Positions 11,301-62,831 of a stretch of DNA of 64,000 nucleotides are shown here, in pieces. Below the pieces are notes generated by a model. That model searched no databases, was not told where the DNA came from, and worked only from the letters and a program-made list of their open reading frames with translations. Within the stretch, counting starts at the first letter, position 1, and each line of letters starts with the position of its first letter. Made by a program: the position numbers and the translations under genes. The DNA is from a virus. Lineage: Duplodnaviria > Caudoviricetes. Location: IMG/VR virus record IMGVR_UViG_3300047400_000324, positions 11,757-75,756 of that record; one strand, given 5' to 3'.

Positions 11301-11915
11301 TTATTGAATCTCATTCACTTTTGTATAAGTAGCATTTATACTAGTATATCTACCATATTCAGAAATAATATCAGAGCGTATGAATCCATATTTTGAAAAA
11401 ATATCGTTCCACCAAGTTTCTTCTTTCAATGTTACATGATAATTTTCATCAGGAAATGTTGCTATACCAACAATAAAATGACCATTCATATTGAGATGAT
11501 TGTTTACATTTATAAACAATTGATGCAAATCTTTTTCATATATATGTTCTAGAACATCGAACGCCGAAATTGCATCGAATTTTATTATTTGTTCAGAATC
11601 ATCTACAATTTTAAATGGTTTAGTTATATCTGCCGTAAAAAGATTATGGGGAATATTATTCCATTCTCCAGTTTTATTCTTAAATCCATAATCGCTACCA
11701 TCTATGCCAATTGCAAAAATATTATTTTTTATAAATTGCGATACAAATCCACCACCGGCACAACCCAAATCCAAATATTTCATGTTTGGGCCCAATTTAC
11801 GAATCAAATTTCTAACATATAAACCGTTTTTTGTATTATCTTGTTTAGTTCCCTTTGGATTTGTATGATCATAGCTTTCACATGCTATTGGAAAATCTGT
11901 CAATAATTTATGCAT
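11301..11915 (-). CDS. Class I SAM-dependent methyltransferase
   Basis: YLDLGCAGGGFV motif I; FDVLEHI. Confidence 0.85.
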   Translation of the reverse strand: MHKLLTDFPIACESYDHTNPKGTKQDNTKNGLYVRNLIRKLGPNMKYLDLGCAGGGFVSQFIKNNIFAIGIDGSDYGFKNKTGEWNNIPHNLFTADITKPFKIVDDSEQIIKFDAISAFDVLEHIYEKDLHQLFINVNNHLNMNGHFIVGIATFPDENYHVTLKEETWWNDIFSKYGFIRSDIISEYGRYTSINATYTKVNEIQ

Positions 11916-19087: not shown

Positions 19088-19765
19088 TTAATTCGCAAAA
19101 ACATCTTTGAGAAATGAAAAATTGTTTGAAAGTTGAGAAGCTGCGCTTACAGCAACTTCCCGATGTTCTTTTTGTGTTGATTTATCGCATCTGAGCATAC
19201 AATAGTGAATCCAGCTTCTTAGAGATCCATTCATATACATTCTCGATAAAGTCAAACCTTCTGGCAAAACAGTTCTTGCTTGTTCTTTAGCTATACCATT
19301 GGATATAGCCCATGCATATGCCTTTTTAGATACATTGATAGCATCCGTTTGAATTGCATTCCAATTCAATTGCAATTCTTTATCGTCTGTATCAAAACTG
19401 TTTTGCCGATTTTTTACATCCTGCAATCTAGCTTCTCGTAAAGTAAATCCAAGATCGTTTACTGGATCTGCATATCTTTGACTGAATTCCTGAAAACTAA
19501 AACTGCGATGTCGCAAAATCTGCCGAGCAATATCTCTAGTAGTATTAATTTCCATAACAACATTGACCATTTCGAAAATCGACCAATGATTGTTTTTAAT
19601 ACAATATTTCAAAAGCTTATCGGACGTTTGAGTATTCATTTGATTTGAAGGATTTGAAACCCTAGCACAATACGCAATAAAATCATTTGCATTCATTTGC
19701 TTATTTGTTATAGGGTCTACAATCAAAGGTTGGCTGATAGATATAATTTTAGCCATATTATTCAT
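19088..19765 (-). CDS. thyX: Flavin-dependent thymidylate synthase
   Basis: HWSIFE, RQILRHRSFSFQEFSQRY, ARTVLP, GSLRSWIHY, TQKEHR. Confidence 0.96.
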   Translation of the reverse strand: MNNMAKIISISQPLIVDPITNKQMNANDFIAYCARVSNPSNQMNTQTSDKLLKYCIKNNHWSIFEMVNVVMEINTTRDIARQILRHRSFSFQEFSQRYADPVNDLGFTLREARLQDVKNRQNSFDTDDKELQLNWNAIQTDAINVSKKAYAWAISNGIAKEQARTVLPEGLTLSRMYMNGSLRSWIHYCMLRCDKSTQKEHREVAVSAASQLSNNFSFLKDVFAN

Positions 19766-35057: not shown

Positions 35058-37583
35058 CTATCCAAAGAAAGATTCTAATGTATTTGTTTTTTCTAAACTC
35101 CAATCTATAACTTCTACTATAGATTGAATTGGATCTACAAATGCTTTTTGAAATTGCAATTCTTTGTTTATACAATGGTCTAAATTGAATTCTGTCGGCA
35201 GAGAATCCAATATAGTTATAACGTTTTCACGCAATGGATTTGGCATTGACAGATATGCAAATTTAACTTTATCGCCGTCGCCAATCATTTGATATTGATT
35301 ATGTAAATTTTTCTTATCAATCATGTTATTGTATAATAGAGCACCGCGAACATGAATTGGTGTGCCTTTGGCATATATATTATGTTTGTCTTTATATTTA
35401 TTCATACCTTTCATACCACGAGGAAAGGCTATATCCAAAAAAGACATTTTCATAAATTCTGTTTTAAAATCTGCTATATATTTTTGAAACGTTTCTTCAT
35501 CTTCGTTCATAATTATTTTAAGCGATTTTTTAATTGCGTCTCTGCACGATTTTGGTGTAGAAGACCTAACCGCTTCAATACCCATGATTTTCAATTGTGG
35601 TTCTGAAAATCTTACTCCTTCGATATCCAAGGCGTTTAGAATATACATCTTTCTTGCTTTCCAAATGCCTTTATTCGCTATAGTTTCACGTTTCATGAAC
35701 ATCTTTTGCTGATAAGCATGCATATATTCAGATAAATCTGTATAAGACCGATTTATCATATTTTGAATTTTTGTGCTGCAAAATTTATCAAGGCAATCGA
35801 CGATATTGGATATATTTGTTTTATCGTTTGCATCGATGCCAAGACGTTTAACCAATGGTTCCATATTGATATAAACAGAATCTGTATCGGATGCAATAAC
35901 ATAATCCAAATCTTTTGTTTTCAAAAGATCGTTGAAATATCGATTGAATTCTTTTTCAATCCAACGAATTGACAATTGACCAGACATAGTTATAGCTTCA
36001 GCCAAATCAAAGTCGAACCATCGAAAATATTCATTTGCCAACGCGCCGTATGCCGAATTCAATTGTATCTTTTTTGCTAATTGAAGATTGTGATATTTTG
36101 CAATATCGTTTGAAACTAGGCGTCTTTGTTCGATTTCTTCCTCTGGAATTGTTTCAAGTTTTTTCTTAACATCAAGCATTTTCTGTTTATAAACAGATCG
36201 ATCATTATAAAATTTTTCCATCAATGCTGGAAGAAAACCTTGTTTTTCTCTGTTGAAAATTACACCGTTTGCAGCGCGTATCAGTCCATCGTTTTCTATT
36301 TCAAATCTTTTTTCCAAAAGAGAATCGATTGATGGAAAAGTTTCTGAACGACTTATTTTCGTTTCCGGCGATATATTATATTGCATGATCAAATGTGGAT
36401 AGAGAGAGGTCAAATCAAAAGAAACTACCCAATTTGTCAATCCAACTTTTACATCTTTCACATATCCACCAACAAGTGAATTATTGAAATTTTTCTTTTT
36501 GAATTGAGGAATAACAATACATCTATCCAACAAGAAATTGTGTATAATCACATCCCAAGGTCTAACAGTTGTCATTGTATCGTTATAATTTACTTTTGCA
36601 TCATATGCAAAAACAATTACTTGTTCGATAAATTTTAGTTTTTGTTCAAGCATATCGATAAGTGTAACGTCATGGATGTTATAATCAATAAACAAATCAT
36701 GATTTTTCTTATAAAGATCATCGAGCGATTTATAACCAGAAGAAGAATAATCTACTTTCTTTTCTCCAAGTTCTTTTTCAGCAATCGCATCCAATTTATA
36801 AGATTCTTGTTGTTCGAATTTGAATTTTTTATAAAGATGCAAATAATCTAAAATATTGATACCTGCTGGAATAAAAGTTTGACAATCTTTGTCGTGTATA
36901 TTGACAGTTCTTTCTTCCAAGAATCCCCATGGAGACAATTTGTTTGCTTCATGATTTCCAAGAACATTACGAATTCTGTTGACAATATAAGGCAAATCGA
37001 AAAATTCGATATTCCAACCTGTCAATATATCTGGCATGTATCTGCCAGATTGCCATATTTTAATAAAATTATTGAGAAGATGCCATTCATCTGCACATTT
37101 TATATAATTCACTTTATCCGATTTTACTGTATATTCTCCCATGCCAAGAACCACTTTCTCGCCTTTGCGAGACATAGTAATAGCAGTAATTTCTTTATCG
37201 GCTTTTTCTATATCGGGAAAACCATCGTCCGATCTAGTTTCAATATCCAATGAAATAACATTGATTCTATCGACATCATAATTCATTTCCGGAAATTTAT
37301 CTCTAATATAAACATAATGAAATAAATTGAATCCAAAGATTTCAACATTCGATACATCGCTGTATTGTTTGATAAAATCTTTAGCTTCATGAATGTTATC
37401 GAAATCTATTTTATCTACTGGGTATCCATCGAGAGTTCGATAACGTGTATCCGTTTTACCGGTAGATTTTATAAAAAGATATGGCTTATAATCTACGGTT
37501 TCATTCACTCTTCTACCATCTTTATAACCACGATAGTATATTTTATTTCCACGCGTAAAAACGTTTGTATAAAATTCAGACAT
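35058..37583 (-). CDS. 43: Family B DNA polymerase gp43
   Basis: Exonuclease motifs DIET, GWNIEFFD, YNIHD; polymerase motifs SFDLTSLYP, KIQLNSAYG, SDTDS. Confidence 0.98.
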   Translation of the reverse strand: MSEFYTNVFTRGNKIYYRGYKDGRRVNETVDYKPYLFIKSTGKTDTRYRTLDGYPVDKIDFDNIHEAKDFIKQYSDVSNVEIFGFNLFHYVYIRDKFPEMNYDVDRINVISLDIETRSDDGFPDIEKADKEITAITMSRKGEKVVLGMGEYTVKSDKVNYIKCADEWHLLNNFIKIWQSGRYMPDILTGWNIEFFDLPYIVNRIRNVLGNHEANKLSPWGFLEERTVNIHDKDCQTFIPAGINILDYLHLYKKFKFEQQESYKLDAIAEKELGEKKVDYSSSGYKSLDDLYKKNHDLFIDYNIHDVTLIDMLEQKLKFIEQVIVFAYDAKVNYNDTMTTVRPWDVIIHNFLLDRCIVIPQFKKKNFNNSLVGGYVKDVKVGLTNWVVSFDLTSLYPHLIMQYNISPETKISRSETFPSIDSLLEKRFEIENDGLIRAANGVIFNREKQGFLPALMEKFYNDRSVYKQKMLDVKKKLETIPEEEIEQRRLVSNDIAKYHNLQLAKKIQLNSAYGALANEYFRWFDFDLAEAITMSGQLSIRWIEKEFNRYFNDLLKTKDLDYVIASDTDSVYINMEPLVKRLGIDANDKTNISNIVDCLDKFCSTKIQNMINRSYTDLSEYMHAYQQKMFMKRETIANKGIWKARKMYILNALDIEGVRFSEPQLKIMGIEAVRSSTPKSCRDAIKKSLKIIMNEDEETFQKYIADFKTEFMKMSFLDIAFPRGMKGMNKYKDKHNIYAKGTPIHVRGALLYNNMIDKKNLHNQYQMIGDGDKVKFAYLSMPNPLRENVITILDSLPTEFNLDHCINKELQFQKAFVDPIQSIVEVIDWSLEKTNTLESFFG

Positions 37584-54727: not shown

Positions 54728-55206
54728 TTTTATTGAAACACACAGATAAAAATTTAAATCAAGTTTCAGAAAATTTCAATTTCAAAGAACCGCCGTTCGA
54801 TCCTATAGAATTTTCACAAGAACTTGTAAAATTTATGTATGATAATAATGGAATATGTTTAGCAGCTCCGCAAGTGGGCATTCCACTCAGAATATTTGCT
54901 ATGCGTGGTTCACCACAAAATTTTGTTGTGTTCAATCCAAAAGTTATTATGCCTAGTAAGGATGAAGTCAGATTGGAAGAAACTTCTATGACTTATCCTG
55001 GTCTTATTATTCCAGTAAAAAGATCGCAACATTGCCGTGTTAGATTTGCAACACCCAATGGTGAAGTTAGAACCGAAACATTTACGGGAATGACGGCACG
55101 CGCTTTTCTACAATCGATGGATTTTTTGGATGGAAAAAAATTCTATGCAAATTCGAATCCAATACATCGTGAAAGAGCTTTCCGGAAATGGAATAAAAAG
55201 AATTGA
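54724..55206 (+). CDS. def: Peptide deformylase homolog with degenerate active site
   Basis: GICLAAPQVG; EETSMTYPG in place of EGCLS; QSMDF in place of HEXDH. Confidence 0.8.
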   Translation: MILLKHTDKNLNQVSENFNFKEPPFDPIEFSQELVKFMYDNNGICLAAPQVGIPLRIFAMRGSPQNFVVFNPKVIMPSKDEVRLEETSMTYPGLIIPVKRSQHCRVRFATPNGEVRTETFTGMTARAFLQSMDFLDGKKFYANSNPIHRERAFRKWNKKN

Positions 55207-55230
55207 CAATTCTATTATACAGTGTATAAT
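55203..55230 (+). promoter_or_regulatory. Sigma70-like promoter
   Basis: TTGACA-N16-TATAAT. Confidence 0.7.
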
Positions 55231-55842: not shown

Positions 55843-56265
55843 ATGGAGAACAATATGTCAAATGATTGGCCGTATGATATCAATAAAATGCATGAGCATT
55901 ATAAAATATATAATGCTATATCTAAGCTTACCGAAGATAAAGAAAAGCTTCATGCTTTATTGCAATTTCGTATTTCATTTCTTAATGAAGAATTGAATGA
56001 ACTTAAAGATGCTACAAATGCTGAAGATGTTGTAGATGCTTTGATAGATTTGTGTGTTGTGGCCATTGGTACTTTGGATATTTTCGGCATCGATCCGTAT
56101 AAAGCTTGGGATGAAGTTCTTAAGGCTAATATGAATAAAACGCCAGGGGTAAACCCGTCGCGTCCAAATCCTTTAAATCTACCTGACTTAATTAAACCTG
56201 CAGGTTGGTCTGCACCTTCTCATGCCGAAAACCATGGAAATCTTGGAATCATTTTCAATGTCTAA
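55843..56265 (+). CDS. MazG-like all-alpha NTP pyrophosphohydrolase (candidate dCTPase)
   Basis: FLNEELNELKDA, VDALIDL.VVAIGTL, AWDEV.KANM.K, DLIKP.GW..P. Confidence 0.8.
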   Translation: MENNMSNDWPYDINKMHEHYKIYNAISKLTEDKEKLHALLQFRISFLNEELNELKDATNAEDVVDALIDLCVVAIGTLDIFGIDPYKAWDEVLKANMNKTPGVNPSRPNPLNLPDLIKPAGWSAPSHAENHGNLGIIFNV

Positions 56266-56854
56266 AGCATATAAACTTGATGATCTTATTTCTTCCCTTA
56301 AAGGCACGTGCATAGAAATCGATTCTAACGATTATAGAGACGAAATTGATATGCAAGTCGATACAAATTATGTACGGGAAATTAAAAAGTGTGAAAAACC
56401 ACGTTCTAAAGACGAAATATGGAAACATACAGTTGCTGGGTTTTGCGCTGAGAAATCTTTACAAATTATTAATGGGTCACTTGAATCGTATTCCCCCATC
56501 ACAAAAAACGCTGAAGGGCTTTCCTTTTTAAACCGACAAACCGATTTGTTGTACGGAAATACCCAAATTGCAGTTAAATCCAAGTCAAAAAAATATCCGA
56601 TGTTTTATTTGTCTCACAGCCAAATAAGTTCTATAAACCATTTAATTCCACATAATGAGTATATGATTGCTGTAGAATATGTAAATTCTGATCTTAATAA
56701 AAGTGTGTATAAATATAACCCTTTATTTATTGCTAAAACCAAACATATTGTTAAATATATTACTCCGCTTTTTGGCCGCTCCACTAAATGGAGCGGCCAT
56801 CATCTCAATTATCAATTAGGAATTGAAAAAAATGAATTCATCGATCTTAGATAA
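56222..56854 (+). CDS. Hypothetical protein, weak PD-(D/E)xK-like motif
   Basis: AEK...TDLLY..TQIAVKSK; lies inside the DNA-modification operon. Confidence 0.45.
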   Translation: MPKTMEILESFSMSKAYKLDDLISSLKGTCIEIDSNDYRDEIDMQVDTNYVREIKKCEKPRSKDEIWKHTVAGFCAEKSLQIINGSLESYSPITKNAEGLSFLNRQTDLLYGNTQIAVKSKSKKYPMFYLSHSQISSINHLIPHNEYMIAVEYVNSDLNKSVYKYNPLFIAKTKHIVKYITPLFGRSTKWSGHHLNYQLGIEKNEFIDLR

Positions 56855-57203
56855 CAATAATGAACCAATGTCGATTGAAGTGCTCCGTGAATGTATAGAG
56901 TTACAACTTAAGAAATCTCGCGACTATCAAAATCCAACATCTGCTGTTAAACAAGCAGATTATTATCCAAACGGTTGTTTGACGATTCATGATATTATGC
57001 ATACTAAAATGCTTCGGTTGAAGTCCGTCATGGAAGCTTTGCAAAATGATACGGCTTATAAACCAAATTTTGAATCTTTAGAAGATTCGGCAAAAGACCT
57101 GATCAACTATGCCAGTTTTTTTGTATCATATCTTCGTGGCAAAATAGACGGGCAAAGCCAAACGCATGATCTTTTCAATAAGGCCAACAATGAAACAAAA
57201 TAA
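56823..57203 (+). CDS. Nucleotide-modification-associated domain 1 (Nmad1/DUF1599-like) protein
   Basis: LQLKKSRDY, I.DIM..KMLRL, ESLEDS.KDLINYASF. Confidence 0.75.
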   Translation: MKKMNSSILDNNNEPMSIEVLRECIELQLKKSRDYQNPTSAVKQADYYPNGCLTIHDIMHTKMLRLKSVMEALQNDTAYKPNFESLEDSAKDLINYASFFVSYLRGKIDGQSQTHDLFNKANNETK

Positions 57204-57843
57204 AGTATCAGATATTCGTCAGGAATTTCTAAATTTAAAACACAATGAAGAATATATCATTGATAAAACTGGGGTAAAAACTCTTGAAATAATAAATGCA
57301 AATTTTATTGCAGACGAAGATACTATATTTGGACAGGTAAATCAAAACTACATTGAACGTGAAATTCAATGGTATAAATCTATGTCACTAAATGTTAATG
57401 ATATTCCAGGAAACACACCTACAATCTGGAAACAAGTTGCTGATGAAAATGGATATATCAATTCAAATTATGGATGGTGTATCTGGGCTGCAGAAAATAA
57501 AAATCAATATAATAATGTTTTGCAAGAATTGCAAAAAAATATTTTTTCAAGACGCGCTATTATGATTTACACTAGACCCAATATGTGGTATGATTATAAT
57601 CTAAATGGCCGTTCTGATTTTATGTGTACTAATACGGTTCAATATGTTGTTAGAAATAATAAATTGCATTGTATTGTGCAGATGAGAAGCAATGATGCTT
57701 GGGCTGGTTATCGTAATGATCGTTCATGGCAATTGTATGTTCTTAACATGTTAGCATCAGATCTTAATATAGAAGCTGGAAATATATATTGGAATTGTGG
57801 TTCTTTGCATTTCTATGCAAAACAATTTGATCTCATACAGTGA
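57166..57843 (+). CDS. 42: dCMP hydroxymethylase gp42
   Basis: Closely matches T4 gp42: DKTGVKT.EI..A.F.ADE, YI.RE..WYKS.SL, INSNYGW.IW, SRR..MIYTRP.M, DFMCTNTVQY, MRSND...G.RND, WN.GSLH.Y. Likely start MKQNK at 57190. Confidence 0.93.
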   Translation: MIFSIRPTMKQNKVSDIRQEFLNLKHNEEYIIDKTGVKTLEIINANFIADEDTIFGQVNQNYIEREIQWYKSMSLNVNDIPGNTPTIWKQVADENGYINSNYGWCIWAAENKNQYNNVLQELQKNIFSRRAIMIYTRPNMWYDYNLNGRSDFMCTNTVQYVVRNNKLHCIVQMRSNDAWAGYRNDRSWQLYVLNMLASDLNIEAGNIYWNCGSLHFYAKQFDLIQ

Positions 57844-57855
57844 ATGATATAAATT

Positions 57856-58311
57856 ATGTCAATTGATAATTTATCAACGAAATGGACAATCAATTATCTT
57901 GGTTTAGCAAAACATATTGCTGAATGGTCTAAAGATCCTTCTACTAAATGTGGGGCAATTGCAATTGGAAAACATATGCAGATTTTATCTGTTGGATTTA
58001 ATGGATTTCCAAGAAAAATAGAAGATACTGCCGAAAGACTGAATGATCGTCCTACAAAATATTCTTTAATGGTTCATGCTGAAATGAACTGTATATATAA
58101 TGCTACGCTCAATGGCATTAGTTTAGACGATGCAACTATGTTTGTTTATGGATTGCCTGTATGTTCAGAATGTGCAAAAGGTATAATTCAATCAGGCATA
58201 AAAAAAATTGTTGCTAGTTATCCTCCTATTATATCTGATAAATGGAGAGAAATGGGTCAACTTACAAGTCAAATGTTTGAAGAATGTGGTATTGAATATT
58301 ATAGTTTATAA
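57856..58311 (+). CDS. cd: dCMP deaminase
   Basis: SKDPSTKCGA, GFNGFP, HAEMN, PVCSEC. Confidence 0.92.
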   Translation: MSIDNLSTKWTINYLGLAKHIAEWSKDPSTKCGAIAIGKHMQILSVGFNGFPRKIEDTAERLNDRPTKYSLMVHAEMNCIYNATLNGISLDDATMFVYGLPVCSECAKGIIQSGIKKIVASYPPIISDKWREMGQLTSQMFEECGIEYYSL

Positions 58312-59568
58312 TTGAAAGATTTAATAATGGATAAAAAAATAGCTATTATTCTTGGGCGCGGTGTCGAAGGGTGTGGAGTAACAAAAAATGCTATTGAATT
58401 CAATAAATTTTATAAAAATTCATGCATATTTGCAACAGTTGATAAGATTTGGGGCCGTCACAATTCTATGAAATTTGAATATGTTGGATTCAAATGTTCA
58501 GATTTACAATCTGTCAATGATTTAATACATAATATAAATTCAAATTTTGATATTGTTATTTTTTATTCTATTCCTTCAATTAAACACGAAACATCGTGTA
58601 TTAAAAATTTTCTCCATTTAATAGATTCTATTAAATTGCCGAAAACAATGATACAAGTAGATCATAATAATGCATCGCTTCAACGAAATGCAAATTTAAT
58701 AGAAGTATGCAATATGATGGATCAATTATTGACGCATTCTTTAAACGGCGCATTTGCAAATTGGTGTTATTCAAATTCAATCCAAACACCGTTGAATACT
58801 ATGGGAGTAGGATTCAATTATGATTTACATCGTAGCATATGGTGGAAACCAATAGAAGAACAAGATGATCGTCATATAAAATGGATTGGCAGGTGTGCAG
58901 TATGGAAAGGGCCAGTTGAATTAATCAATTTTCACAATGAATGTTTGCGCAAACATTCATTTATTACTACGCTTGAAGGCTTAGAAGCTTCATTAGCATC
59001 TACTATTATAACACATATAAATGGAGATAAAGAAAAACCGCGGGATGTGAATGAATATATTCGTAGCGGAAGACATAAATTAGCACATAATTTATATGGT
59101 AAGGAAAAATATGGAGATGCTCCATGGCTTTACCCCAGTTATATTAATTTAGAATGCATGGAAAGATTGAGTCGTTGCGCGTTTGGTTCTGATTTATATA
59201 ATCTTAAAAAGGAGTATTATGGCAACAATATAGAATATTGCCACGCTGAAGTAATTGCGTCTGGTGCTGTACCTATTTTCCATAAACATTTTGGTGATAA
59301 TGTCATACATAGAAAAACTGGAATTCCATGCACTAAAACATTTTCTGGAACTATATGGTATGATCCAAATAATTTAGAATATACTACCAAGTATATTCTA
59401 AAACTTGCAAAGGATCGTGTAGCAAGGGATGAGTGGCGTGAAACAGCATATGAATTTTGGAAAGAGCATTCTGATGCCAGTATAATCAATAACGATATAT
59501 TGCAAAAATCTTTATCAGCAACACCAAATATTAGAAATCGTTCTTTTGGCATTGAAAGATTCATTTAA
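58312..59568 (+). CDS. agt: DNA alpha-glucosyltransferase (T4 Agt-like)
   Basis: GRGVEGCGVTK (T4 ARGLEGCGVTK), DH, WIGR...WKG, EGLE, Y.N.E..ER.S...FG, EY.H.E...G..P.F.K, RE.AYEF. Confidence 0.88.
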   Translation: MKDLIMDKKIAIILGRGVEGCGVTKNAIEFNKFYKNSCIFATVDKIWGRHNSMKFEYVGFKCSDLQSVNDLIHNINSNFDIVIFYSIPSIKHETSCIKNFLHLIDSIKLPKTMIQVDHNNASLQRNANLIEVCNMMDQLLTHSLNGAFANWCYSNSIQTPLNTMGVGFNYDLHRSIWWKPIEEQDDRHIKWIGRCAVWKGPVELINFHNECLRKHSFITTLEGLEASLASTIITHINGDKEKPRDVNEYIRSGRHKLAHNLYGKEKYGDAPWLYPSYINLECMERLSRCAFGSDLYNLKKEYYGNNIEYCHAEVIASGAVPIFHKHFGDNVIHRKTGIPCTKTFSGTIWYDPNNLEYTTKYILKLAKDRVARDEWRETAYEFWKEHSDASIINNDILQKSLSATPNIRNRSFGIERFI

Positions 59569-60761
59569 TGAAACACGCATCTATCATTCCGCTCATTGGC
59601 GGTGAAACTATCGGTTGTGAATATGCATTTGGGTCTCCGCCAGATTATTTTTTATCGTATGAACCATTTCAATCCAATGATCAACATATTTTAAATTATT
59701 ATAATAAAGAAATACCATATTATTTGCTTGATAAAAATCAAAAATATCCATATAAAGTAGATGTTATTTCAACCGTGTGTCCGTGCGCGGGTTTATCACA
59801 ACTTTCTACGATTGCCGGTGAAAATAATATTGCAAATCGATGGTTATTGGATACTACAAAATTTGTTCTCGAAGAAATGAAACCAATAGTTTTTTGGGGT
59901 GAAAACGCGCCGGGTTTAGCTGGAACAATAGGTAAAGGCATCCGTGATAAACTTTATGCAACAGCTATCGATTGCGGTTATAGTATGACTTTATATCGAA
60001 CGCGTTCTTTGCTGCATGGAGTCCCGCAGATAAGAGAAAGAACTTTTTATTTCTTTTGGCGTGGAAATAAAGTTCCTTTGATAAACTATTTTTCGCGCAA
60101 ACATACACCTATAGAAACTGTTATATGTGAATCTCGTGGAAATACTCAGCAAGAAACTATAAATAAAAATACTCCATCTAAAGATCCGTATTATCGATAT
60201 ATTTTAGAAGTTCTTTTTGACGGAATAACCCATTCAAAATTTTCTGAAATTATAGAACCAAGGGCTGCGGGTGGAAACGATACGCTTTCATATATAGAAA
60301 AACAAAACATTTCATATGCACAACTATCTGATTGGATGCAAATGCATGGCTATGATAAAGAAGCAGCGGCATGCATAAGAAGATATAATAAACTTAATGA
60401 TGGAAAACAGATAATGCGTCGTGGCATTATTGTACCAAAAGATTATATTGGTGCATTTGTTGGGCATCATCCATATTCAGTAACACATCCCATTGAAGAT
60501 AGATTTATTACATACCGTGAAGCTATGACAATAATGGGTTTGCCTGATAATTTTGAATTGATTGAACCAAGAAAAAACGTGAATCATATTTGTCAAAATG
60601 TTCCCGTGCAAACCGCAACGGATATGGCTAATGAAGTTTTAGCATATTTAAACGATAAAAGAACTATGATAGATAGCAGAATGATTTTTCAATATAATCA
60701 ACAAAGGAAAGAAAATATTATAAACACTAATAATGGAACACTTGAGATTTTTTTTAATTGA
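59568..60761 (+). CDS. C5-cytosine methyltransferase-fold protein with atypical motif I
   Basis: CPCAGLS (IV), GENAPGL (VI), QIRERTF (VIII), RFITYREAM.IMGLP (IX), QNVP (X); motif I reads SIIPLIGG. Confidence 0.8.
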   Translation: MKHASIIPLIGGETIGCEYAFGSPPDYFLSYEPFQSNDQHILNYYNKEIPYYLLDKNQKYPYKVDVISTVCPCAGLSQLSTIAGENNIANRWLLDTTKFVLEEMKPIVFWGENAPGLAGTIGKGIRDKLYATAIDCGYSMTLYRTRSLLHGVPQIRERTFYFFWRGNKVPLINYFSRKHTPIETVICESRGNTQQETINKNTPSKDPYYRYILEVLFDGITHSKFSEIIEPRAAGGNDTLSYIEKQNISYAQLSDWMQMHGYDKEAAACIRRYNKLNDGKQIMRRGIIVPKDYIGAFVGHHPYSVTHPIEDRFITYREAMTIMGLPDNFELIEPRKNVNHICQNVPVQTATDMANEVLAYLNDKRTMIDSRMIFQYNQQRKENIINTNNGTLEIFFN

Positions 60762-61203
60762 AAGGTATTATATTATGGCTAATACAGTAAAAGAATATTT
60801 GGATAATCCAAATGGGTTTGATTCTATGATAAAAGATACAAGTTATATTACAAATACTGGAAATATCACCGTTTCAAATAATGTCTGGGGAGTTATTACA
60901 AATACACAGAAGATAAATTTCAACCGAGAAAATATAGGTTTTAAATATAACGAAGATACTATTCTAGATGAAGTATATAAATATATTTGTAGCACATATG
61001 GCGGATATTACGGAAATACCGTTCAAGCACAAGATTTGATCGTTGAATCAGGTCATGCTGAAGGTTTTTATATCGGAAATGTTATTAAATATTCTTCACG
61101 ATATGGAAAGAAAGATGGTTATAATAAAAAAGATTTAATGAAAGTAATTCATTACGCTATATTGGCTCTCAATAATCACAATTTACAACATGAAAAGGTA
61201 TAA
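60733..61203 (+). CDS. DUF3310-like protein
   Basis: FKYNED.ILDEV..YI.STY, GFYIGNVIKYSSRYGKKDG...KDLMKVIHYA. Confidence 0.7.
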   Translation: MEHLRFFLIERYYIMANTVKEYLDNPNGFDSMIKDTSYITNTGNITVSNNVWGVITNTQKINFNRENIGFKYNEDTILDEVYKYICSTYGGYYGNTVQAQDLIVESGHAEGFYIGNVIKYSSRYGKKDGYNKKDLMKVIHYAILALNNHNLQHEKV

Positions 61204-61206
61204 ATT

Positions 61207-62055
61207 ATGGAAATAAATATTTCTGTTGAAGAACTTAGAAAGCGAAAATTATTTCTTGCTGTTCCGATGTATGGCGGACAATGCCACGGAATGTTTGCAA
61301 AATCAGTTGCGGATTTGACTTCTATTTGCACAAGTTATGGTATAGAACTTAGATCGTATTTTTTATTCAATGAATCTTTGATTACACGCGCTAGAAATTA
61401 CTGTGTTGATGAATTCATGCGTTCCGATATGACGCATATGATGTTTATCGATTCAGATATTGGTTTCGATCCGCGAGACGTTTTGGCTCTTTTGTCATTG
61501 CAATCGGACGATTCCGAATACGATGTCATTGCTGGACCTTATCCAAAGAAGTGTATTTCATGGGAAAAGATCAAGTTGGCAGTAGATAAGGGTATTGCCG
61601 ATGAAGATCCAAATGTTCTTGAAAAGTTTGTAGGAGATTTTGTATTCAATCCTAAAAGCGGCGGCGGTCAAATTCGTATAGATGTTCCAGTAGAGGTTTC
61701 TGAAGTTGGAACAGGATTTATGATGACACGAAGGAGCACATTTGAAAAATTCGCTTCAGCATATCCTCAATATAGTTATAAGCCGGATCATGTTAGAACA
61801 GAACAATTCGATGGTTCACGCGAAATTATGCAATACTTTCAAGCAGAAATCGATCCAGAATCCAAGCGTTATCTTTCCGAGGACTATTGGTTTTGCAGGA
61901 AGACTATCGATATTGGTGGAAGAATTTGGTATTGCCCGTGGATGAAAATTCAGCATTGCGGCTCATACATTTTTGGTGGATCACTAATCGATCTGGCATC
62001 AATTGGAGCTCCTGCAACAGCCGATCCATCAATGTTCAAAAAGCCTAAGTCATAA
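61207..62055 (+). CDS. GT-A fold glycosyltransferase
   Basis: LAVPMYGG, ESLITRARN, MFIDSD (DxD), GTGFMM, LSEDYWFC. Confidence 0.82.
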   Translation: MEINISVEELRKRKLFLAVPMYGGQCHGMFAKSVADLTSICTSYGIELRSYFLFNESLITRARNYCVDEFMRSDMTHMMFIDSDIGFDPRDVLALLSLQSDDSEYDVIAGPYPKKCISWEKIKLAVDKGIADEDPNVLEKFVGDFVFNPKSGGGQIRIDVPVEVSEVGTGFMMTRRSTFEKFASAYPQYSYKPDHVRTEQFDGSREIMQYFQAEIDPESKRYLSEDYWFCRKTIDIGGRIWYCPWMKIQHCGSYIFGGSLIDLASIGAPATADPSMFKKPKS

Positions 62056-62122: not shown

Positions 62123-62797
62123 ATGAAAATTTCATCTGAAACTTTGGATGTTTTGAAGAATTTTTCTTCCATCAATCTTTCTATTTTTGTGAAGCCTGGA
62201 AATATTCTTCGAACTATTTCGCCAACAAAGTCGGTATTTGCTGTAGCGGAAATTCCTGATACATTTGAAAAGCCATTTGGGATTTATAATCTAAGTCAAT
62301 TCTTGGCATGTCTTTCTATGTTTGAAAATCCCATTGTAGATTTTCAAGACGATATGTCTATCATCAGAGATGAAACAACAGATCGAGAATTGGATTATTA
62401 TTATTGCGATGAAAGCACAATTTTGCATGCGCCAGAAACATTGAAAATGCCGGCAATCGATGTGGAATTCGATTTGAAGGGAAATGATTTGGCTAATGCA
62501 TTGAAAGCAATGGGAGTTCTTGGTCTTCCTGAGATTGCAATTGTTGGCGATGGCAATACAATCATGATTGAAGCTTTCAACAGCAAAACTACAAATTCAA
62601 CCACAAAGTCTAATACTTATCGTGTAAAAGTTGGTAATACCGATAAGGTTTTTCGTGCTGTCTTTAGATGCGAAAATCTAAAGATGCCATCTATCGATCA
62701 TCATGTCAGTGTTTCTTCGAAGGGAATCGCACAATTCAAGGGCCCCCTTGTTACTTATTATGTTACTGTTGAAGCGAATTCCTCTAGTTGGGGATAA
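62123..62797 (+). CDS. 45: Sliding clamp gp45
   Basis: MKIS.ETL.VLKNFSSIN..I.VK.G, FGIYNLSQFL, YYV..E. Confidence 0.93.
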   Translation: MKISSETLDVLKNFSSINLSIFVKPGNILRTISPTKSVFAVAEIPDTFEKPFGIYNLSQFLACLSMFENPIVDFQDDMSIIRDETTDRELDYYYCDESTILHAPETLKMPAIDVEFDLKGNDLANALKAMGVLGLPEIAIVGDGNTIMIEAFNSKTTNSTTKSNTYRVKVGNTDKVFRAVFRCENLKMPSIDHHVSVSSKGIAQFKGPLVTYYVTVEANSSSWG

Positions 62798-62803
62798 GCT
62801 ATG

Positions 62804-62831
62804 AGGGAGAGAATATTCTCTCCCTTTTTTT
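62804..62831 (+). terminator. Palindromic terminator-like hairpin
   Basis: agggagagaat|attctctccct followed by a T run. Confidence 0.65.

Follow-up and report, generated by a model that had tools for sequence, protein, structure and literature searches.

The window analyzed here is the whole 64,000-nucleotide stretch covering positions 11,757 to 75,756 of IMG/VR record IMGVR_UViG_3300047400_000324, which comes from an uncultured phage and is 46% complete; a megablast search with this region revealed no near-identical DNA in cultured phages. Directly behind a DNA alpha-glucosyltransferase (AGT) gene the window encodes a 397-residue protein, referred to here as MT, which combines the fold of the DNA cytosine-C5 methyltransferases (C5-MTases) with an unusual motif I. 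The AGT stop codon overlaps the MT start codon in the sequence TAATG (59566–59570), so that the coupling of the two genes reported in the first-pass annotation of this DNA is confirmed for the window. That annotation also proposed that MT may be a repurposed enzyme, which derivatizes 5-hydroxymethylcytosine (hmC) or uses a cofactor other than S-adenosylmethionine (SAM). The gene and its motifs are as follows.

59568..60761, + strand: C5-cytosine-methyltransferase-fold enzyme (MT), 397 residues (PF00145, AlphaFold2, VIA-align)
59580..59603, + strand: variant motif I, S5-I-I-P-L-I-G-G12 (canonical FxGxGG), residues 5–12 of MT
59778..59798, + strand: motif IV, CPCAGLS, residues 71–77, with the catalytic Cys73 and with Ala74 where the canonical residue is Gln
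59898..59915, + strand: motif VI, GENAPG, residues 111–116, with Glu112 and with Ala114 where the canonical residue is Val
60027..60041, + strand: motif VIII, Q154-I-R-E-R158 (QxRxR)
60738..60758, + strand: C-terminal tail, T391-LEIFFN397, a putative sliding-clamp-binding peptide by its similarity to the polymerase C terminus

Fold, Catalytic Motifs, and Cofactor Cleft of MT

The PHROGs label for MT is DNA methyltransferase, and Pfam family PF00145 matches it with 71.3 bits (cut-off 22) from residue 55 onward, leaving motifs I and II unmatched. An AlphaFold2 model calculated from an input of 117 family representatives has a mean predicted local distance difference test score (pLDDT) of 95.2 and a predicted template-modeling score (pTM) of 0.93. 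The best structural neighbors of this model in a Foldseek search are all DNA cytosine-C5 methyltransferases (E ~1e-13). With VIA-align, model residues 1–361 superpose on chain residues 1–324 of M.HaeIII (1dct) with a Z of 25.9, and residues 1–364 on chain residues 12–325 of M.HhaI with a Z of 25.5, with 275–299 residues aligned. Judged by the model, we are confident that MT has the large domain of a class I methyltransferase together with the small domain of this fold.

A search of 5.8 billion proteins returned 2391 family matches at E <= 1e-5, the best 120 of which share 56–64% identity with MT and all start with ...[IV][IV]PLIGG.... When the search was repeated without a word index against representatives of 50%-identity clusters, 812 matches were obtained, 246 of them at E <= 1e-30; among the best 150 of the 812, nearly all carry hhPLIGG, [CP]PC[AS]GLS, ENAP and QxRxR, down to about 30% identity. 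No published description of the family was found in the literature.

The PC, EN and QxRxR motifs that the first-pass annotation had described as intact were located at Cys73, at Glu112 and at Q154, R156 and R158, and motifs IX (RFITYRE, residues 312–318) and X (QNVPV, residues 343–347) are present as well. An alignment of the 117 representatives shows how little these positions vary. In motif IV, C73 is found in 116 of 117 sequences and A74 in 95, and nearby D65 in 110; in motif VI the counts are 117 for E112, 115 for N113, 113 for A114 and 108 for P115. Motif VIII retains Q154 in 115 sequences, with R156 and R158 in all 117 each, and motif X retains Q343 in 115 and N344 in 112. Ala74 and Ala114, smaller than their canonical counterparts, flank the catalytic Cys and Glu and, by comparison with canonical structures, presumably face C5 and the transferred group.

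The cofactor half departs from the classical pattern. The reading SIIPLIGG given for motif I in the first-pass annotation is correct and holds throughout the family: classical FxGxG(G) is absent from MT, and its Phe and first Gly are substituted family-wide. In the structural alignments model residue 1 is the first to be paired, with residue 1 of M.HaeIII and with residue 12 of M.HhaI, which suggests a register in which I7 stands for the motif I Phe (F7 of M.HaeIII), L9 for the first Gly (G9), and G11-G12 for the canonical GG. A profile-profile comparison of the family with Escherichia coli Dcm aligned motifs IV–VIII alone, and in hidden Markov model searches against PDB sequences the matches of MT begin at about residues 40–50. 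Because profile methods miss motifs I–III, residues of the cofactor half were equated with canonical ones from secondary structure and from the points at which the structural alignments begin.

In canonical enzymes a Glu after strand 2 binds the ribose of SAM. MT has E32 at the motif II position, which, as far as the equivalence of residues can be placed, is acidic in just 32 of the 117 representatives; at the motif III position Asp55 is Asp in 82. Around position 32 the alignment shows S30 in 101 sequences, an aromatic residue at 31 in 110, F34 in 109, N37 in 110 and an acidic residue at 38 in 115. In motif I, P8 is kept in 115, L9 in 116, G11 in 117 and G12 in 115 of the 117, so that the variant motif cannot be attributed to decay. 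Comparison of these representatives (50% clustering) and of the 120 close homologs indicates that the variant pocket is held by purifying selection. By the same reading of the sequences, the machinery of MT for attack on C6 is intact, and its cofactor cleft is rebuilt and was then fixed by selection.

Association of MT with gp42-type Synthases

Upstream of MT lie the genes that bear on the state of cytosine in this phage.

55843..56265, + strand: MazG/PRA-PH-like nucleotide pyrophosphohydrolase 1, a candidate deoxycytidine triphosphatase (PF01503, E 9.6e-9; phrog_671)
57166..57843, + strand: gp42-type deoxycytidine monophosphate (dCMP) hydroxymethylase, that is, 5-hydroxymethyl-dCMP synthase (E 1.5e-78 to T4 gp42, PDB 1b49)
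57856..58311, + strand: dCMP deaminase (PF00383, E 4.3e-16; phrog_174)
58312..59568, + strand: AGT homolog (PF11440, 128 bits; phrog_2888, E 1.6e-77)

The gp42 homolog retains the motifs DFMC, SND and RND and has Asp at each of the positions matching L143, D169 and N177 of E. coli ThyA. By published criteria this combination (D,D,D) denotes a 5-hydroxymethyl-dCMP synthase, L,D,N denotes a thymidylate synthase (TS), and D169N denotes a 5-hydroxy-dCMP synthase (PMC13326640). PRA-PH genes are enriched on modified-cytosine contigs, whose published signature consists of PRA-PH, an N177D synthase and a deaminase (bioRxiv 10.1101/2024.12.05.627091). By this signature the source phage would replace its cytosine with (glucosyl-)hmC, a conclusion that is well grounded in gene content. 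The earlier statement that this genome should lack unmodified cytosine draws on the same gene content and has the standing of a prediction.

The surroundings of MT were compared in 228 loci taken from IMG/VR, metagenome lookups and a cultured-phage collection, in which the MTs form 18 clusters at 50% identity; three single distant representatives used as queries contributed together one locus. The synthase active-site pattern gave 120 matches across the 228 loci, all of them within tblastn-confirmed TS genes and all D,D,D. In the T4-like clade (clade 0), a synthase lies 2–6 kb upstream of MT in 30/30 of the loci that extend 7 kb or more to either side of it. For clades without an adjacent synthase, whole records contain a TS homolog in 9 of 27 cases, eight of the nine being D,D,D, and the records with no TS homolog are fragments, nearly all less than 30% complete. 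Of the MT-carrying viral records with a completeness of 90% or more, 10/10 contain a D,D,D synthase. The base rate of gp42-like genes among cultured phages is 962 of 50,697 records.

Cultured carriers of the family fall into at least three groups. In Pseudoalteromonas phage XG4 the synthase is D,D,D. In the TIM5-like cyanophages, where the family member of S-TIM5 is F417_gp080, the TS carries the dCMP-type Asp177 but Cys or Ser at 143, and DNA alpha-glucosyltransferases are annotated. Bacillus phage G encodes a distant family member, gp301 (IFGG, CPCSGLS, ENAP), 4 kb from an alpha-glucosyltransferase, and its genome has one L,D,N and one D,D,D synthase. No D169N (5-hydroxy-dCMP-type) synthase was found beside MT in the loci, records and metagenome-bin flanks examined.

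These data suggest a dependence that runs one way: MT was not found without a gp42-type synthase where a TS could be found, and the T-even phages do without MT. Homologs with the same motif I that are common in phages without gp42, which would have counted against the proposal of the first-pass annotation, were not encountered. The question it raised, whether the variant motif I tracks with gp42/agt, is answered with yes for gp42 but not for agt in particular, the upstream cassette being variable (see below).

A separate observation concerns one synthase frame (locus L244, G020:7564-11079; the record, of 389 kb, is classified as a provirus), which is of the D,D,D type and contains one in-frame TGA; this could reflect a pseudogene, a sequencing error or recoding.

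Distribution of the Family

Among 185,579 prokaryote species genomes the family was found at 18 loci, every one of them in metagenome bins (MAGs), and no member was found in the isolate genomes of this set. A D,D,D synthase is present in the flank of 12 of these 18 loci. The absence from isolate prokaryotes and the company of the D,D,D synthase at most of the MAG loci argue that the family is not a restriction-modification methylase. On the evidence of these searches, the family is large and occurs nearly exclusively in viruses. Thousands of environmental phage sequences thus carry MT alongside the genes for replacing cytosine with hmC, a setting in which a classical C5-methylase should be idle.

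A few family members are long fusions of 598–1462 residues (P0209 from locus L264, P0179 from L265, P0177 and P0167), one of which ends in a CXXC zinc finger. They sit on Tara/JGI contigs, too short to show a gene context, and may be eukaryotic or from giant viruses; for P0179, P0177 and P0167 neither a Pfam domain nor an Atlas neighbor was found in the C-terminal extension.

A Clamp-type Tail at the C Terminus of MT

MT ends in ...NGTLEIFFN, preceded by a linker of lower pLDDT. Two further genes of the window are needed for comparison.

35058..37583, − strand: family-B DNA polymerase, gp43-like (PF03104, PF00136), C terminus ...NTLESFFG
62123..62797, + strand: gp45 sliding clamp (PF09116, E 6.6e-16; phrog_223, E 1.1e-65)

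An ending of the TLE-FF type is found in only two of the 227 open reading frames (ORFs) of at least 60 residues in the contig, and these two are MT and the polymerase. In T4 and RB69 the C-terminal tail of the polymerase binds the gp45 clamp. Across lineages the tail of MT co-varies with that of the polymerase. Within the T4-like phages, polymerase STLEDFFG is paired with MT NSLETFFN, and polymerase STLEDWFA with MT STLVEYFM; in two other clades a polymerase ending in ...VRTQLF is accompanied by MTs ending in ...KSKNLF and ...NSTCLF, and in the jumbo clade ...QSLLSF of the polymerase is matched by ...STLLSF, SALLSF and SKLFNF of MT.

The T4-like tail pattern is present in 87 of 125 distinct clade-0 MTs versus 61 of 1765 background ORFs, and these 61 are mainly polymerase, AGT homologs, proteins of cluster c11, whose gene adjoins MT, and proteins of cluster c42, which has a weak match to 5-hydroxymethyldeoxyuridine (5-hmdU) DNA kinase. 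The lineage-specific tails of the polymerase (…TLEEFF or …KSLF) recur on glycosyltransferase-like and unclassified proteins encoded beside MT, namely AGT homologs, c11 (e.g. L149:2213-3310) and c31 (e.g. L077:3019-4263). The AGT of the window itself ends in …SFGIERFI, a doubtful match. No clamp-type tail was found on the gp42, dCMP deaminase, DUF3310 protein or epimerases of the family loci. T4 alpha-glucosyltransferase is reported to co-purify with gp45 (PMC13216743).

The likeness of the MT tail to that of the polymerase, and their co-variation across lineages, argue for tethering of MT to the clamp. The tail sequences suggest that MT, like the glycosyltransferases, is a client of the clamp and would act on DNA just behind the fork, a reading that in turn disfavors both a role at the nucleotide level and host DNA as the main target.

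Variable DNA-glycosylation Cassettes Upstream of MT

The interval between the deaminase and MT holds AGT alone in the window; in related phages it may hold a 365-residue protein of no known family or a set of four genes. Other sets in this interval include UDP-galactopyranose mutase, nucleoside diphosphate (NDP)-sugar epimerases, cytidylyl- or nucleotidyl-transferases and inositol-1-phosphate synthase (examples of cassette loci are L012:5906-10000, L086:1564-2565, L087:8136-8582 and L192:6208-7410). On unrelated backbones, including those of jumbo phages of 290–425 kb, MT is again found among glycosyltransferase and sugar-nucleotide genes. MT is the constant partner of interchangeable cassettes, and their variety suggests that diverse sugars or other groups may be placed on hmC.

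Several proteins in the slot have no family, and the weak 5-hmdU DNA kinase match is also among its occupants. Pfam gave no match for clusters c11, c22, c23 and c24, and no relation of c11 or c24 to AGT was seen with hhalign. A small protein of about 134 residues (cluster c20, e.g. L024:5527-5931) is common in the deaminase-MT cassette of related loci and weakly resembles uracil-DNA glycosylases (superfamily PF03167, E 0.005).

Relation of MT to Known Systems

MT shares with M.HaeIII and M.HhaI (PF00145) the fold, the PC motif with its catalytic Cys, the Glu of motif VI, QxRxR and motifs IX and X. It differs from them in motif I (IPLIGG versus FxGxGG), in the motif II Glu, which is not conserved, in the residues that follow the catalytic pairs (PCA and ENA versus PCQ and ENV) and in motif X (QNV versus GN(A/S)V). 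Unlike these enzymes, the MT family has a C-terminal clamp-type tail, was not found in a restriction-modification context, and is linked to a gp42-type synthase. The fold and catalytic core are therefore known, and the combination with the hmC pathway and a clamp-type tail appears, from the sequences, to be new.

Cofactor-free reactions of C5-MTases on cytosine and hmC in vitro have reportedly been described by Liutkeviciute, Klimasauskas and colleagues. The same chemistry, passing through a Cys-C6 adduct, could exchange or remove the 5-hydroxymethyl group, although those reactions are test-tube side reactions of normal MTases. We know of no natural enzyme dedicated to them.

A precedent for a change of cofactor on this fold is provided by CmoX, a phage DNA cytosine C5-carboxymethyltransferase that has the C5-MTase fold and a non-SAM cofactor (PDB 8yf3; PMC12783734). 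CmoX shows that the C5-MTase fold does get re-tooled by phages for other cofactors. CmoX resembles MT in being a phage enzyme of this fold that feeds a hypermodification pathway, and it is a structural neighbor of MT (Z 23.7; E 1.5e-14), but MT is no closer to CmoX than to ordinary MTases, and CmoX itself acts on ordinary cytosine in GC motifs. Moreover, its partner CmoA (TIGR00740) was found in 0/10 near-complete MT-carrying records and not in the contig of MT itself, with control genomes positive, and the CmoA/CmoX route is thereby ruled out.

The C5-MTases associated with TET in phages likewise lie within gene clusters for glycosylated hmC (PMC8256090). Those enzymes make 5-methylcytosine (5mC), which TET oxidizes to hmC after replication, whereas here hmC would come from the gp42-type nucleotide pathway. 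TET/JBP (PF12851) was found in 0/25 MT-carrying records, and in 0/10 near-complete ones, in a search run without a positive control, and a TET-coupled route is unsupported. With T4 alpha-glucosyltransferase and gp43, both clients of gp45, MT would share recruitment of a DNA-acting enzyme to the sliding clamp, in its case by similarity of the tail only; no description of a C5-MTase-fold client of a phage clamp was found in the literature.

Proposed Reaction of MT and Its Alternatives

The one-way dependence on gp42, the conserved rebuilt cleft and the probable tethering to the clamp within modification cassettes favor a reaction that depends on hmC. The reading that we prefer, and to which we would give about an even chance, is that MT is a clamp-tethered enzyme that derivatizes hmC, or uses a non-SAM donor, on newly made DNA. 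MT would be held on gp45 through its C-terminal TLEIFFN, as would the DNA polymerase of the same phage, and would act on freshly replicated DNA alongside the clamp-tailed glycosyltransferases. There it would flip a cytosine-type base for attack on C6 by Cys73, aided by Glu112 and Arg156/Arg158. The reaction might then be an exchange at the 5-CH2OH of hmC, by way of the Cys-C6 adduct and an exocyclic-methylene intermediate, or else the delivery of a group from a donor other than SAM to cytosines that had not been replaced.

A reaction different from simple methylation with SAM is favored because the cleft is rebuilt (IPLIGG, no conserved motif II acid, Ala74, Ala114) and because C5 of the phage cytosines would already be occupied. 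We offer only tentatively the more specific proposal that SAM methyl transfer has been abandoned for an undescribed DNA-modifying reaction, in which hmC is converted into another 5-substituted cytosine or a non-SAM one-carbon unit is placed onto escaped cytosines. New chemistry on hmC, or a new donor, would enlarge the known set of phage base modifications and might yield an enzyme tool for hmC-specific DNA labeling or sequencing.

Several points weigh against a hmC-derivatizing or non-SAM enzyme. Features compatible with SAM have been kept: the GG of motif I, motifs IX and X, an Asp at position 55 in 70% of the representatives and, in MT itself, Glu32. A deviating motif I is also known from the DNMT3 enzymes of eukaryotes. 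The hmC pathway of the T-even phages functions without MT. The co-occurrence of MT with gp42 could partly reflect joint transfer of the hmC genes and MT as a mobile module, and binding of MT to gp45 is predicted from similarity of the tail sequence alone.

These retained features, together with a complete C5-MTase fold and the full set of catalytic motifs, are what would be expected of an ordinary SAM-dependent 5mC methyltransferase with a divergent motif I, which rides on the clamp and methylates stray unmodified cytosine or a specific motif, leaving no bare cytosine. Such an enzyme is a serious rival, if somewhat unlikely. The clamp tail fits a scanning enzyme that mops up escaped cytosines, and the dependence on gp42 would be explained because bare cytosine is harmful only in a fully modified genome. 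Within the T4-like clade the target-recognition-like insert equals the N-terminal (cofactor) half in conservation, which makes a single fixed target plausible. Speaking against plain methylation, however, the whole family has lost the Phe and first Gly of motif I and the acid of motif II, and the conserved PCA and ENA changes are not explained by plain use of SAM. Phages with ordinary DNA commonly carry canonical orphan C5-MTases, whereas the MT family was not seen without a gp42-type synthase; nor was MT seen beside 5-hydroxy-dCMP-type synthases, where mopping up would be equally useful. Were MT nevertheless such a "proofreader" of stray cytosine, it would show how phages complete the modification of their genomes and would be a phage parallel to the PCNA-tethered DNMT1. 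The proposal of the first-pass annotation, a repurposed enzyme that derivatizes hmC or uses another cofactor, thus fits the rebuilt pocket and the PCA/ENA changes but has to share the field with SAM methylation of residual cytosine.

It is improbable that MT is a weapon against cytosine-containing DNA of the host or of rivals, with SAM-less C-to-U deamination or covalent adducts as the damage and hmC as the protection of the phage (compare the T4 nucleases that act on cytosine-containing DNA only). C5-MTases without SAM do deaminate cytosine in vitro, the cofactor motifs of MT are degenerate, and such a role would account for a dependence in which MT is not found without gp42. On the other hand, the tail matches the clamp tail of the phage polymerase and so points to phage forks, not host DNA; the remodeled pocket is strongly conserved and not decayed, and the gene lies inside DNA-glycosylation cassettes in several unrelated lineages.

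Still less probable is a non-catalytic accessory that binds DNA and flips bases, for example to present hmC to the glycosyltransferases. Translational coupling of MT to AGT and the clamp-type tails common to MT and the glycosyltransferases are in keeping with it, but the 117 representatives, down to about 30% identity, show little or no variation at Cys73, Glu112, Arg156 and Arg158, which is unexpected for a protein that is not an enzyme. An enzyme whose substrate is not DNA but dCMP, 5-hydroxymethyl-dCMP (hm-dCMP) or the triphosphates would suit the nucleotide-pool genes in the flanks (MazG, gp42, cd and the kinase-like DUF3310) and the thymidylate-kinase-like gene near MT in other clades, but is the least likely of all and is ruled out as a main reading by the distribution of the tails, which in these loci are confined to DNA-acting enzymes and missing from gp42, cd, DUF3310 and epimerase; the structural alignment to DNA MTases, moreover, spans the whole length of MT, including the small domain.

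Other Genes of the Block

The remaining features of the block around MT, and one gene outside it, are listed below.

55203..55230, + strand: predicted sigma-70-like promoter ahead of the block, TTGACA-16-TATAAT, by match to the consensus only (12/12 positions)
56222..56854: 210-residue ORF between the two MazG-like genes and overlapping both, no Pfam or PHROG family
56823..57203, + strand: second MazG-like hydrolase (phrog_18404, E 1.5e-13)
60733..61203, + strand: DUF3310 protein and candidate hm-dCMP nucleotide kinase (PF11753, E 2.2e-8; PHROG "nucleotide kinase" families)
61207..62055, + strand: GT-A-like (nucleotide-diphospho-sugar transferase-like) protein (phrog_1574, E 1.6e-62)
62803..62826, + strand: intrinsic-terminator-like hairpin ending the block, with a 10-bp stem followed by a T run
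19127..19696, − strand: ThyX flavin-dependent thymidylate synthase, separate from the gp42-type enzyme

From promoter to terminator all genes are on the + strand and several overlap. The second MazG-like hydrolase is conserved 5' of gp42 in related loci; the 210-residue ORF had tblastn matches at E 1e-5 in just one of 73 related loci. The DUF3310 frame as listed overlaps MT by 29 nucleotides, and its translation probably begins at the ATG at 60775 (MANTVKEY…).

The GT-A-like protein outdoes MT in conservation, with up to 90% identity in related loci, where its gene always lies directly 5' of gp45. It has a DSD motif, its relatives have a Lys-rich C terminus, and its Atlas neighbor cluster is named NDP-sugar transferase.

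The presence of a separate ThyX makes the gp42-type enzyme dispensable for the supply of deoxythymidine monophosphate. A survey of pelagimyophages describes one group (C) with "two thymidylate synthases and a dCMP deaminase", and nothing further (PMC7029224); ThyX and the hm-dCMP synthase of the window match the two thymidylate synthases of this group.

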